Shown piece after piece: positions 3,309-62,111 of a DNA stretch of 64,000 bases. Location: NCBI RefSeq assembly GCF_988243305.1, contig NZ_OZ547136.1, one strand, 5' to 3'. Under the pieces are notes generated by a model, which saw nothing but the letters and a program-made list of their open reading frames with translations, was not told the origin of the DNA and did not search any database. Made by a program: the position numbers and the translations under genes. Position 1 is the first letter of the stretch. Each line of letters starts with the position of its first letter.

Positions 3309-4202
<894 letters not shown>

Positions 4203-10472: not shown

Positions 10473-12974
10473 TTACAGTTCCAGTTCATGTTGCAGCAGG
10501 CTGGCGATAGCGTCGGCAGAGGCGGCGTTAACCAGCGCGTTACGGAATTCTTCGTGCATGATGCGGCGAGCGAGGCGCGAGAAAATGCGCATGTGCTGAT
10601 CGCCCGCAGCGTGTTTGTTCAGGGTTAACATAATGATGAATTGCGCTTCATCATCGCCCCAGCGCACCGGCGCTTGCAGACGCGCCACGCTGATGGTGGA
10701 TTGCTCAATGTGTTCTGATTTGCTGTGTGGAATGGCAAAACTAAAGCCCAGACCGGTAGAGAAAACGGCCTCGCGCGCCCATAAGTCGGCTTCCAGTTTA
10801 CGCGGATAGCGGCAGCGGCCCGCCAGCAGCAGGTTATCGGTCATGCCTTTGAGCACTTCTTCTTTGCTGCGCCAGTCACTTTCCAGCGTGATGCACTCGG
10901 CGGTGACCAGCGGTGCGTCCTGTTGGGTCATGCGGAATTGCGCCAGCAGGTGTTCCACTTCCAGCGAAGTACGGCAGGCCATTGCCTGGTTGAGCAACTT
11001 GCGGCACTCACGGCTATCAAGTTGCGCCATCCGAGCTTTCGCCGCCGGAATTGATGGTGCGCTCATGCTGAGTTCATCCAGCCCTAAGCCGACCAGCAAC
11101 GGCAGCACGGAACCTTTCGCTCCCAGCTCACCGCACAGACCAATCCATTTGCCCTGGCGATGCACCGCTTGCACGGCGTAATCGAGCGCCCGCAAGAATG
11201 CCGGATTCAGGCTGTTGTAGTGACGAGTAACCTTAGCGTTATCGCGATCCACTGCCAGCAGATATTGCGTCAGGTCATTACTACCAATACTAAAGAAATC
11301 AATCTCTTCACAGCATTGATCGATGATGAACATCACCGACGGCACTTCCAGCATGATGCCGAGCTGGATCTTCTCATCAAACGGAATGTGTTCGTTACGC
11401 AGTTGCTGTTTGGCTTCCGCCAGTTTTTCTTTCACCCATAAGATCTCTTCCATTGAAGAGATCATCGGGATCATGATTTTCAGGCTGCCGTGAGCGGAGG
11501 CACGGAGAATCGACCGTAGTTGTGTGGTAAATAACGACGCGTACTCTTCATAAATACGCACGGCGCGATAACCGAGGAACGGGTTTGCCTCTGCGGGAAT
11601 GTTCAGATAATCAACGGGTTTGTCACCGCCAATATCCATAGTGCGCACAATAATGCTGCGTCCGTTGGCGGACTCCAGCGCCTGACAAAAAATGTTGTAC
11701 AGCTCGCTTTCGCCCGGTGCACTGGTGCGATCCATATAGAGCATTTCAGTGCGGAATAAACCAACGCCTTCCGCACCATTGCCGAATGCGGCCTGCGCTT
11801 CCACGGAGTGAGCGATGTTAGCGGCAATTTCAATGCGGATACCGTCAGCGGTACGGGCTTGTTGGGTCAGCCAGACACGCTGTTGCTCACGCAGGGCGTC
11901 CTGTACGCGGGCTTCCTGCTGATAATAACGAGCTACGGCTTCCCCTGGCTCAACCACAATCGCCCCAGCGTTTCCGTCGATATAAATCGTTTGATGCTGC
12001 CACGGAGTGAGGGCATCAATATCCACACCAACCAGCGTCGGAATGTTGAACGAACGGGCAAGGATCACCGTATGTGAGGTGGTGCCGCCGCTTTTGAGCA
12101 ACAATCCTTTGAGGTGATTTTTATCCAGTTCGAGGAACTGGCTGGGGGTCAGTTCATCAGCCATACAAATGGCGGGCTGCGTCAGTTTGCCCGGTGCCGG
12201 GAAGCGTTGCTCACCGTAGATTTGCTGGAGTAACTGGAAGCAGACGTCGCGTACGTCCAGGGCGCGTTCTTGCAGGTAGCTGCTGCTGGAACGGGCGAAC
12301 TCTTCGCAGAAGTGGTGTGCACTGGCGACAATCGCTTCGGCACAGCTTAATCCCTCGCTGACGCCTGCCAGTAAGTGCTGACGTAAAGAAGTATCGCCAG
12401 CCAGGGATCGGTGAGCTTCCAGAATCGCGCTGGTGGCACCGTCGCTATCCAGCAGACGAAATTCAATGTTTTTCATCACCAGCGTCAGACCGTTTTCCAG
12501 TGCGGATTGTTCGGCGTCAACGCTTTTGGCAGCAGGAAGATTACCCAGCGCATTGAGATCTAAAGAAGAGATCGGCGTCAGAATGCCGCCTGCGCTACCG
12601 CTGCACACGGTGCGGGCGCGGATAATTTGCGGATTCAGATTGGTCAGTGAAACCGGCAGTGGTTCCAGTTCGTCAGATTTTACTTCCGCCAGCGGTGCGT
12701 CGCAGTGGGGGAATTCATCGCGCAGCCATTGGCTTAAACGCTGGTACGCTTCCTGTTCGTCTGCCCCGGAAATCAGTAACTGGCAGTTATCGCCCACCAG
12801 CGTATCGGTGCCAATCAGCGCAAGGGCGCTTTTGGCGTTGCCCTTGCGGTCAGTGCGCAGGTTATGCCACTCAATTTGTGATGAAAAAGTATTACACAGC
12901 GTTTCAACGTGGCTTGCCGGACGCGCATGTACGCCGTTAGGTAGCTCACAAATAAATTCCACAATCAGGGCCAT
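10473..12974 (-). CDS. ptsA: Multiphosphoryl transfer protein (PTS enzyme I-like with HPr and EIIA domains)
   Basis: 833-aa ORF; PEP-utilising enzyme motifs; synteny. Confidence 0.92.
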
Positions 12975-59837: not shown

Positions 59838-59863
59838 AAAAACCCGCTTCGGCGGGTTTTTTT
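59838..59863 (+). terminator. Rho-independent terminator downstream of rpoC
   Basis: aaaaacccgc-ttcg-gcgggttttttt. Confidence 0.8.
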
Positions 59864-60028
59864 ATGGGGGTAGTTTAGGGAAAGAGCATTTGTCAGAATA
59901 TTTAATGAATTTCTGGATACTCATAATCAATGTAGAGATGACTAATATCCTGAAACTGACTGAACTAATTGAGTCAAGCTCGGCAAGAATTCGATACTAT
60001 TCCTGTGTGACTTTCTTAAGGAACGATA

Positions 60029-60568
60029 ATGAAACAGGAAGTGGAGAAGTGGCGACCTTTTGGACATCCGGATGGTGATATTCGTGATTTATCATTTCTT
60101 GATGCTCATCAGGCTGTCTACGTTCAGCATCATGAGGGCAAAGAGCCTTTAGAGTATCGCTTCTGGGTTACCTACTCTCTTCACTGCTTCACAAAAGATT
60201 ATGAACATCAGACTAACGAAGAAAAACAATCGTTAATGTACCACGCGCCTAAAGAATCTCGTCCCTTCTGCCAGCACCGTTATAACTTAGCGCGCATACA
60301 CTTAAAAAGAACCATTTTGGCGCTGCCAGAAAGCAACGTTATTCATGCTGGGTATGGTAGCTATGCCGTGATTGAAGTGGATTTAAACGGAGGAGACAAG
60401 GCATTTTACTTTGTTGCGTTCAGGGCTTTCAGGGAAAAGAAAAAACTTCGTTTGCATGTAACTAGCGCTTATCCCATTTCTGAAAAACAGAAAGGTAAAT
60501 CAGTGAAATTTTTCACCATTGCCTACAACTTATTGAGAAATAAGCAGCTTCCTCAGCCCTCAAAATAA
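60029..60568 (+). CDS. yjaZ: Heat-shock-associated protein YjaZ (HtrC), DUF2268 family
   Basis: 179-aa ORF MKQEVEKWRPFGHPDGDIRDLSFLDAHQAVYVQHHEGKEPLEYRFW...; synteny between rpoC and thiH. Confidence 0.85.
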   Translation: MKQEVEKWRPFGHPDGDIRDLSFLDAHQAVYVQHHEGKEPLEYRFWVTYSLHCFTKDYEHQTNEEKQSLMYHAPKESRPFCQHRYNLARIHLKRTILALPESNVIHAGYGSYAVIEVDLNGGDKAFYFVAFRAFREKKKLRLHVTSAYPISEKQKGKSVKFFTIAYNLLRNKQLPQPSK

Positions 60569-60730
60569 CAAAACCCACCTTAAGGTGGGTTTCGCCAGAG
60601 AATTATCTCTGGTATTCAGAACGCCATTACCGGACTTTGCCTTGACCTTGCGATAATCGCAGGTTGCGGGATGTCTGAATTTCTTCAGTCTGCTGCATCC
60701 TGGAAGATGAGAACATGTGTTCTTATTTTC
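60566..60730 (-). ncRNA. sroH: Candidate small RNA (consistent with SroH) bounded by a sigma70-like promoter and an intrinsic terminator
   Basis: On the minus strand: -35 TTGTAA (plus 60760-60765), 17-bp spacer, -10 TATGAT (plus 60737-60742); about 165 nt downstream is the hairpin aaacccacc-ttaa-ggtgggttt followed by UUGUUAUUUU, overlapping the yjaZ stop. I recall SroH as ~161 nt and adjacent to yjaZ (htrC). Confidence 0.5.
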
Positions 60731-60977
60731 GTCTCTATCATAGTTGAGTATTTACTCTCTTACAATCAGATCTCTTTCATTGCTCAACAGGCGATGGCTT
60801 CAGACTTTGCATTACGGAATTTTTAAGAAAGGCAGGGCGAAACGAGGAAGAAGCTTTTCGCCCTGGACAACATTCCTGCTGACGGCACTACCATAAAAAA
60901 ACACAACGCTTTCAACAACCTTGCGTTTTTCATCTTCCGTAGCGGCTCGGAATAAATTTACGTTCTTACATTCTGTC

Positions 60978-62111
60978 TCATGGCCTTTGCGAGGCGCGTC
61001 CCAGATAGCTGTCCCAGTCTTTCCATACCGGCTGCAAACCCTGAGCAGTTAACGCGGCAGCAACCGCTTCCGGTCTGCGACCGTCGTGCGGTGAGAACTG
61101 TTCCAGCTCGGGGTGATTGTCGGCATAGCCACCTGGCTGCGTTTTCGAAAAAGCGCTGACGTTATTAATTGCCAGCGGAATCACGCGATCGCGAAACCAC
61201 GGTGATTCCCGCGTGGAGAGTGACAGTTCAATCTCCGGTGCAAGCAGCCGGAAGGCGCAGATGGTTTGCACTAACTGGCGTTCATCCATAATCGACGCAG
61301 GCTCAATGCCGCCAGTACATGGACGCAGGCGTGGGAAGGAGACAGAGTAGCGGCTTTGCCAGTAATGCTGTTGCAGCCATAGCAAATGTTCTGCAACCAT
61401 ATAGCAGTCAACGCGCCAGCTGTCGGAAAGGCCAATTAGCGCGCCGAGGCCTATCTTATCAATCCCCGCACGGCCCAGCCGATCCGGCGTTTCCAGCCGC
61501 CAGAAGAAGTCCTGTTTTTTGCCTTTCAGATGGTGGCGGGCATAAGTCGCCTCGTGATATGTCTCCTGATAAACCATCACGCCATCCAGACCAAGTTGCT
61601 TTAACTCGGCGTATTCCGTCTCCGCCAGCGGCTGTACTTCCATCTGTAGTGAAGAGAACTGTTCACGCAGGGCAGGGAGATGACGACGAAAGTAATTCAT
61701 CCCCACTTTCGCCTGATGTTCACCAGTGACTAAAAGCAGATGTTCAAAGCCCATCTCCCGTATAGCGGCGCTTTCCCTGGCAATATCCGCTTCATCCAGC
61801 GTTTTGCGCTTGATGCGGTTGCTCATAGAGAATCCGCAGTACGTACAGTCGTTAGCGCAAAGATTGGAAAGATAAAGCGGGACGTAGAAGCTGACGACGT
61901 TGCCAAATCGCTGACGGGTCAGACGCTGCGCCCGTTGGGCCAGTGGTTCCAGATAGCCACTGGCGGCTGGCGATAACAGCGCCATCATATCGTCGCGGGT
62001 GAGTTGCGAGACATTTAGCGCCCGCTCTACGTCAGCAGCCGTTTTGCCGTTGATACGCAGGCGGATGTCGTCCCAGTCCAGTTGTCGCCAGCGATCGCTG
62101 AAGGTTTTCAT
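60978..62111 (-). CDS. thiH: 2-iminoacetate synthase (tyrosine lyase; radical SAM) for thiazole biosynthesis
   Basis: 377-aa ORF with CANDCTYC radical-SAM motif; last gene of the thi operon. Confidence 0.94.

Follow-up and report, generated by a model that had tools for sequence, protein, structure and literature searches.

Type III toxin-antitoxin (TA) systems (ToxIN, CptIN, TenpIN) are mobile two-gene modules on plasmids, each combining a protein with a structured RNA that forms a pseudoknot and has a terminator of its own. Type I TA loci with convergent genes overlapping at their 3' ends (par/Fst RNAI-RNAII, TxpA/RatA, BsrG/SR4) have small membrane peptides as toxins, and some of these systems share bidirectional terminators (par locus of pAD1, TxpA/RatA). 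Protein-binding RNAs such as 6S RNA, CsrB/C, and GlmY target core proteins of the host and are inherited vertically. We describe here the small RNA (sRNA) gene sroH and the adjacent protein gene yjaZ in a stretch of 64,000 nt (the window; NCBI RefSeq assembly GCF_988243305.1, contig NZ_OZ547136.1; all coordinates refer to it unless a locus is named). Structured RNAs related to SroH of Escherichia coli form a widespread family, and sroH and yjaZ together form a self-contained two-gene module that moves between chromosomes, genomic islands, and plasmids. The pair resembles type III systems in this composition and mobility; type I systems in that the genes are transcribed convergently, the terminator is shared and looks bidirectional, and the RNA is driven by a separate promoter; and the protein-binding RNAs in that SroH is abundant, stable, expressed in stationary phase, and would function through its conserved structure rather than through a seed. 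In contrast to 6S RNA, CsrB/C, and GlmY, SroH is linked to a single accessory protein gene and travels with it.

Positions 60570-60730 of the minus strand are sroH itself, a known gene, and not merely an SroH-like unit, as the original prediction for this stretch had put it. The identification is correct because the Rfam model RF00372 (sroH) matches over its full length (model positions 1-161, 201.1 bits, E = 3e-50; gathering score 80 bits) and because the geometry is identical with that in strain MG1655 (NC_000913.3), where the minus strand carries the noncoding RNA sroH (b4691) one base past the yjaZ stop, with thiH on its other side. This position confirms an sroH gene of about 161 nt beside yjaZ (htrC). 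The window is E. coli DNA, and its region 60500-61000 is 100% identical in strain 7/2. The original prediction was right in its reading of the locus; missing from it was that the RNA is deeply conserved, structured, and tied to yjaZ.

A scan for YjaZ loci, with one genome per species, gave 61 loci. In a plain nhmmer search, sroH matched ~38 of them, in all but one directly 3' of the yjaZ homolog and on the opposite strand; in the exception (L027, a Thiomargarita contig) the RNA lies upstream on the same strand. The matches included cyanobacteria, Marinomonas, Aeromonas, Psychrobacter, and Pseudomonas lundensis, where protein identity is only ~50%. A covariance model built from 37 copies (R1) found the RNA in 41 loci at 80-136 bits and gave weak matches in the same relative position beside proteins of 26-35% identity; these weak matches align with the same architecture and define a second RNA subfamily, and the two RNA subfamilies follow two protein subfamilies. 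A second covariance model (R2) that included these weak matches placed the RNA in the same position in every Pseudomonas-type locus, as well as in plasmids of Klebsiella and P. aeruginosa, with scores of 48-66 bits (L054, 26.6 bits); a cassette-free control gave terminator-level noise only. The genetic linkage is obligate: the RNA stands beside the YjaZ-family gene in 58/58 evaluable genome loci and 4/4 plasmid loci, with protein identity down to 26%. Left out of the 58 were L033 and L063 (contig end) and L053 (yjaZ cut by an insertion sequence, IS). The hosts cross phyla and include Pseudomonas, Vibrio, Marinomonas, cyanobacteria (among them Planktothrix), and Klebsiella plasmids. RF00372 scores the distant copies at 45-80 bits, under its threshold, and no other Rfam family fits them; its gathering score thus shuts out the copies in Pseudomonas, Aeromonas, Marinomonas, Psychrobacter, Lonepinella, and cyanobacteria. 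The module is autonomous as a pair: no neighboring open reading frame (ORF) family occurs within 2.5 kb in more than 3 of 35 diverse loci, and a third conserved gene was rejected on this survey.

SroH folds into seven helices and a pseudoknot, with a core of ~135 nt and invariant single-stranded segments (Table 1). In an unfitted MAFFT alignment of 37 copies (A3), the RNAalifold consensus has 35 pairs, 23 of them with compensatory changes, and 97.8% of the cells are paired as against 34-47% with slid partners. A larger alignment (A5; 100 copies, 81 distinct, from both RNA subfamilies and metagenomes) has 97.7% of its cells paired (77.7% in shuffles, at most 47.5% with slid partners), changes on both sides in 33/39 pairs, and a covariation score of 0.538 (0.163 in shuffles); the observed values were reached by 0/500 shuffles. 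P1 (60669-60700) encloses the invariant loop GCAGCAGAC and hairpin P2; P3 (60622-60668) closes a junction with P4, P5, and the invariant strands GGUC.AGG and CCGGUAA. The pseudoknot helix was absent from the model used to build the alignment. One of its pairs changes from A-U to G-C in 18 sequences and another from A-U to G-C or C-G in 3, with zero single-sided changes among the 81 distinct sequences. The long single-stranded stretches (GCAGCAGAC, GGUCGAGG, CCGGUAAAG, UUCUGAAUACC) are nearly invariant. G-U pairs number 72 on the SroH strand and 4 on the opposite strand; the SroH strand is therefore the functional one, and an opposite-strand RNA (a structure in the yjaZ 3' untranslated region) was rejected by the same count. 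Insertions of 40-100 nt occur in the variable hairpins (P2 or P6/terminator) of three copies (L028, 3530-3720; L062, 1358-1593; L066, 3758-3937), with the core kept.

The linkage is asymmetric. For the reverse scan, in which loci were anchored on the RNA, a core pattern from the main RNA subfamily was used; it retrieved 4 viral or proviral contigs (IMG/VR) and 103 metagenomic stretches. A convergent YjaZ gene is present in 74 of the 86 RNA-anchored loci with at least 700 nt past the RNA 3' end, and the other 12 lack an intact YjaZ, though their RNA is complete (82-129 bits). Three of these orphan RNA loci keep a 22-codon remnant of the YjaZ C-terminus; others keep a few codons, for example LPKP-stop. 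In E. coli S51 (L175), yjaZ has a 1-nt deletion in the A-run GAAAAGAAAAAAC and the sroH core is unchanged. Orphan RNAs and the frameshifted S51 gene together mean that the RNA can outlive the protein, and no intact yjaZ without the RNA was found among the evaluable loci. The S51 deletion corresponds to window position ~60440, in the codons of a conserved E-K-K-K, and cuts YjaZ to 143 aa; many E. coli YjaZ clusters are truncated (105-163 aa), and the A-run may be a slippage-prone site of inactivation or the deletion a homopolymer sequencing error. Judged from translations, four orphan RNAs on related contigs (L073, L083, L113, L124) adjoin a 95-aa RelE/StbE-type ORF and one adjoins a DUF5615/PIN-like ORF. 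The RelE/StbE-type ORF is convergent and ends ~64 nt away, which could reflect coincidental clustering of TA genes or replacement of the partner. One metagenomic stretch (L082) holds two RNA copies ~7 kb apart (3673-3807 and 10887-10959), the second cut by the contig end.

The two genes are convergent in ~97% of the loci, the window included; the RNA 3' end overlaps the stop codon of its partner in 36 of 61 convergent loci and elsewhere leaves a gap of at most 30 nt. The overlap of SroH with the yjaZ ORF is the terminator tail only. On a Vibrio parahaemolyticus plasmid (L066), one strand carries in order a promoter, the RNA, a terminator, 25 nt, a Shine-Dalgarno sequence, and the ATG of a YjaZ-like gene; L027 is similar, its RNA and terminator preceding the gene in the same orientation. 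Searched at full sensitivity, L066 and L027 showed no further RNA copy, and the pairing of RNA and YjaZ is therefore independent of antisense overlap. In L066 (3920-3945) the RNA tail is still UUUGUUAUUUCUGGGG, the complement of ...P-Q-K-stop, which looks like the footprint of an earlier convergent order, kept through a rearrangement. Complementarity of SroH to the yjaZ initiation region was not above shuffled controls (mean z = -0.34; predicted start codons, approximate), and there are no tandem repeats anywhere in the yjaZ-sroH cassette.

The module is mobile. The segment 60500-61000 is covered to at least 80% in 3728 of 5420 E. coli genomes, the rest matching the thiH side only; the pair is missing from ~31% of E. 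coli genomes. In an ST131 strain the rpoC terminator runs straight to ~60778-60815 without yjaZ-sroH, and yjaZ, sroH, and the sroH promoter are therefore one block of ~0.9 kb, with a G+C content of 0.37-0.45 as against 0.52-0.63 in the flanks. Loss of sroH in phylogroups B2 and D and in some other lineages has been noted (PMC3318445), and htrC has been listed as cargo of ColE1 plasmids (PMC5864857). With tblastn, 560 plasmids were found to carry YjaZ relatives; 288 of these plasmids are conjugative, and 371 come from Klebsiella. No relative was found in 50,697 phage genome records. The contexts of the module include IS elements, integrases, and tRNA or tmRNA genes. Genes for tmRNA and tRNA are typical integration sites of genomic islands. 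The YjaZ-like gene is immediately preceded by a tmRNA gene in Oceanobacter (L035, 2211-2568) and by a tRNA gene in Aeromonas (L010, 2535-2616).

The htrC designation of yjaZ, the sole functional label the gene had, has been retracted, and its product is uncharacterized. YjaZ has an isoelectric point (pI) of 9.4 (family median 9.25). Its AlphaFold model (pLDDT 87.5) is a soluble alpha/beta fold; the family has invariant His, Lys, Arg, and Tyr residues, with H52, K56, R78, R84, K138, R141, and H143 among them, and the C-terminal sheet carries conserved basic, His, and Tyr residues. Homologs occur in Enterobacterales, Aeromonas, Oceanimonas, Thiolinea, and cyanobacteria, and clustering of the family at 50% identity gives 695 clusters, in nearly all of which the protein stands alone and measures 170-190 aa. 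There was no match in the Pfam or PADLOC libraries, and a PDB sequence profile, Foldseek against PDB, BFVD, and hhalign against RelE gave nothing. The best structural matches of the model are RelE/ParE-superfamily toxins, the toxins of type II systems, over 65-82 residues, and these are weak; an RNase-like toxin identity of YjaZ is a lead only.

The transcription unit is as predicted in its parts. The near-consensus sigma70 promoter claimed for the minus strand is present. Promoter-like sites in the region number 4 as against 2.4 +/- 1.7 expected, a count at chance level, and it is the position of the sroH promoter, not its mere occurrence, that carries meaning: the -10 box ends 7 nt ahead of 60730, which is Rfam position 1 and the counterpart of the annotated K-12 5' end. 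Of 61 other loci, 51 have a sigma70-like promoter (at least 9/12) ahead of the homologous RNA, and in 24 of these the -10 box ends 6-7 nt before the RNA core. The intrinsic terminator that had been placed over the yjaZ stop codon was likewise found, as the stem AAACCCACC-UUAA-GGUGGGUUU at 60592-60571, extendable to 60594-60569, followed by UUGUUAUUUU; this tail is the complement of the last yjaZ bases including the stop TAA (60566-60568). The unit, predicted at ~165 nt, is 161 nt long in the annotation and in Rfam and 169 nt if the U-rich tail is counted to its end. The terminator hairpin is present in the minimum-free-energy fold of the single sequence (-58.5 kcal/mol, z = -5.6), is the sole structure in the RF00372 consensus, and has compensatory changes in 8 of its 9-10 pairs. 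A simple terminator scan missed both this hairpin and the plus-strand rpoC terminator, and folding and covariation were therefore used instead. The DNA at 60569-60594 is a perfect palindrome, and both transcripts could bear the same hairpin; its loop, UUAA or UGAA, is conserved across phyla, which is unusual for a mere terminator.

No convincing ORF had been seen inside the unit, and this held. The small-protein reading (29 aa, or 23 aa from an internal ATG) was rejected for want of conservation: most SroH homologs have no leader to hold the ATG, and cyanobacterial copies read from the internal ATG (ATG CAG CAG ACA TGA) stop after 4 codons. Weak Rfam matches to rsmX, Trp_leader, rnk leader, and hammerhead II were discounted as reflecting only the rpoC and sroH terminator hairpins. 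The rpoC terminator (59838-59868, AAAAACCCGCTTCGGCGGGTTTTTTT) is the left boundary of the block; it is the source of the weak rsmX and Trp_leader matches and lies behind ~18-bit noise matches of R1 and R2, and the terminator scan listed it on the minus strand only. On the other side, the stem-loop claimed at 60833-60867 is real and lies 111 nt past the thiH stop. It stays with thiH in E. coli strains without yjaZ-sroH; its proposed role as terminator of the thi operon is plausible, with a poor U-tract. An 11-nt direct repeat (GACTTTGCCTT/GACTTTGCATT) at 60633-60643, inside sroH, and 60803-60813, near the right indel boundary, is probably due to chance.

Table 1 Features of the yjaZ-sroH locus in the window. 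R1 and R2, covariance models; A3 and A5, alignments.
Feature	Position	Strand	Description
yjaZ-sroH block	59869-60815		Between rpoC terminator and thi-side hairpin; right edge fuzzy (60778-60815)
yjaZ	60029-60568	+	179 aa, basic, uncharacterized; NCBIfam NF007263 at 427 bits
sroH promoter	60765-60737	-	TTGTAA (-35), 17-nt spacer, TATGAT (-10); 9/12 consensus matches
sroH small RNA as annotated	60570-60730	-	161 nt; U-rich tail continues to 60562
5' leader	60703-60730	-	28 nt, small hairpin (GAACACAUGUUC); Escherichia copies only, outside conserved core
Conserved SroH-family core	60562-60702	-	141 nt here; 131 bits (R1), 128 bits (R2); alignments A3, A5
P1	60700-60696 (GGAUG) with 60673-60669 (CAUCC)	-	100% paired; compensatory changes in 3/5 pairs
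P2	60688-60675	-	Compensatory changes in 5/5 pairs
P3	60668-60666 (CGC) with 60624-60622 (GCG)	-	100% paired; compensatory changes in 3/3 pairs
P4	60664-60645	-	96-98% paired (range for P4 and P5)
P5	60641-60632	-	96-98% paired (range for P4 and P5)
P6 hairpin	60612-60595 (CCAGAGA/UCUCUGG)	-	Compensatory changes in 7/7 pairs; also in single-sequence fold
P7 terminator	60594-60569	-	Conserved, covarying
P7 intrinsic terminator with tail	60562-60594	-	Tail UUGUUAUUUU overlaps yjaZ stop codon
Pseudoknot	60692-60689 (CAGA) with 60620-60617 (UCUG)	-	Four pairs canonical in all 81 distinct sequences
29-aa ORF within sroH	60627-60716	-	Judged noncoding
Hairpin past thiH	60833-60867	-	10-bp stem, 13-nt loop, tail CCUUUCUU (weak U-tract); outside sroH unit; candidate thi operon terminator

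From the linkage and its asymmetry we infer, at slightly less than even confidence, that the pair is a toxin-antitoxin-like module, with the RNA holding YjaZ in check by binding to it. Folded SroH would bind YjaZ directly, and the binding would restrain an activity harmful to the cell, possibly RNA cleavage, the antitoxin being a single-copy structured RNA. Convergent genes and a shared terminator would keep sroH and yjaZ inseparable, and read-through antisense transcription may add a second layer of control. It is possible, if somewhat doubtful, that the pair founds a class of RNA-protein toxin-antitoxin (or addiction or defense) systems not described before, in which a ~135-nt pseudoknotted RNA with its own promoter neutralizes a ~180-aa basic protein; YjaZ would in that case have an essentially new fold and could be a distant RelE-like ribonuclease. 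Several points weigh against a toxin-antitoxin-like module. Deletion of sroH in K-12 is viable and is reported as sensitive to envelope stress only, which is mild for the loss of an antitoxin, though chromosomal toxins are often poorly expressed; the asymmetry is also compatible with a protein that needs the RNA as cofactor; and the literature searched contains no report of SroH-YjaZ binding, toxicity, or neutralization. The pattern of the reverse scan was limited to the main RNA subfamily. The "Streptococcus" (L038) and "Rubrobacter" (L047) hosts, the sole apparent ones outside proteobacteria and cyanobacteria, are short contigs of metagenome-assembled genomes and perhaps mis-binned.

The cofactor idea leads to an alternative that we regard as unlikely, a functional ribonucleoprotein in which SroH would be a required cofactor, scaffold, or substrate of YjaZ, such as an RNA used or modified by the protein, and the complex would benefit the mobile element or the host. 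Strict linkage, conserved structure, invariant loops, and a basic protein fit such a complex, a protein never found without its RNA fits a cofactor role equally, and YjaZ has no significant match to any known toxin; intact, high-scoring orphan RNAs that persist after loss of the protein would, however, be unexpected if the RNA were useless alone, and one orphan arrangement recurs in four diverged contigs. The sporadic spread, the enrichment on plasmids, and the frequent loss or truncation of yjaZ also look more addictive or selfish. The convergent, overlapping 3' ends would suit cis-antisense control of type I kind, in which read-through transcripts of yjaZ would be complementary to SroH, and pairing, RNase III cleavage, or transcriptional interference would set the yjaZ level with no need for contact between RNA and protein. 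The hairpin is palindromic, and read-through on the yjaZ strand is plausible because its tail, UUCGCC, is poor for termination. Such control is nevertheless distinctly unlikely: it leaves unexplained that E. coli and cyanobacteria share a pseudoknotted fold whose unpaired nucleotides are invariant, the single RNA copy of L066 and L027 precedes the protein gene in the same orientation, SroH is no more complementary to the initiation region than expected by chance, and YjaZ is a soluble, basic protein of 179 aa and not a small hydrophobic peptide.

SroH could also be a conventional trans-acting sRNA that base-pairs with host mRNAs (envelope functions, kbl), its place beside yjaZ reflecting shared descent only. 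A gel shift with kbl mRNA in vitro (PMC6172242), the envelope-stress sensitivity of the deletion (cited in PMC5389530), enrichment in Hfq PAR-CLIP (bioRxiv 10.1101/2020.06.29.178624), and induction in stationary phase speak for this. It is improbable all the same, since the same invariant loops occur in Planktothrix, Marinomonas, Pseudomonas, and Klebsiella plasmids, which have no common target genes, and the RNA moves with yjaZ into unrelated contexts in which no other neighbor is conserved; the PAR-CLIP report itself terms SroH not an established Hfq target, and overexpression gave no biofilm or motility phenotype (PMC4606813). Finally, the complex fold, pseudoknot, and invariant unpaired nucleotides are typical of aptamers and ribozymes, and an intrinsic terminator directly after the core would suit a ligand-sensing RNA or ribozyme whose state decides termination and hence antisense transcription into yjaZ. 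We consider this highly improbable: no Rfam riboswitch or ribozyme family matches, no alternative anti-terminator pairing was seen, the terminator stem stacks directly on P6 and is conserved and covarying, and in E. coli it is the terminated form that is abundant. Unlike a riboswitch, SroH stands alone, with a promoter and a terminator of its own, and nearly all loci have no gene following on the same strand.

Compared with the described TA families, the toxin-antitoxin-like module proposed here stands apart in several features. L066 and L027 have the ToxIN-like order of RNA, terminator, and gene; SroH, unlike the type III RNAs, is single copy, has no tandem repeats (a ToxI-like repeat array in the cassette was rejected), is transcribed from a promoter of its own, and usually runs convergent to the protein gene, and YjaZ has neither a PADLOC match nor ToxN/AbiQ-type similarity in fold searches and does not belong to the ToxN/AbiQ/CptN/TenpN endoribonuclease families. 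Unlike type I systems, the locus has an overlap confined to the terminator tail, a protein of different size and character, and an RNA with a complex conserved tertiary fold and no conserved complementarity to the initiation region. The lack of such complementarity and of tandem repeats places SroH-YjaZ outside the type I and type III families as defined, although it may work like a type III system. Likeness to RelE/ParE type II toxins lies in the structural matches of the YjaZ model, the best found yet weak, and in the conserved basic, His, and Tyr residues of its C-terminal sheet.

SroH has been detected by Northern blot and accumulates on entry into stationary phase (bioRxiv 10.64898/2025.12.22.696124); poly(A) is added to the 3' end of its primary transcript, and SroH builds up when pcnB is mutated (PMC5389530). 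The RNA is up 2- to 6-fold in an rsd mutant and 2.6-fold after AZT. The literature searched establishes no function for SroH and contains no paper that links SroH and YjaZ or describes the conserved fold, though papers outside that literature are possible; the main texts on Grad-seq and SEC-seq mention neither SroH nor YjaZ. The gene itself was already known; the pseudoknotted fold, the cross-phylum spread, and the SroH-YjaZ partnership appear unreported in Rfam 15 and the literature searched.

SroH is a validated K-12 sRNA that has been an orphan since 2003, and YjaZ is a protein of the y-ome; each now gives the other a testable context. If YjaZ is indeed neutralized by SroH, RNA antitoxins would not be confined to repeat arrays of the ToxIN type, and the presence of the gene on hundreds of Klebsiella, Enterobacter, Serratia, Pseudomonas, and Vibrio plasmids would be accounted for. 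The curated family RF00372, with a consensus that holds the terminator hairpin only, displays neither the fold nor the spread of this RNA; whatever the mechanism, the fold and distribution described here correct the Rfam view of sroH as unstructured and restricted to enterobacteria.

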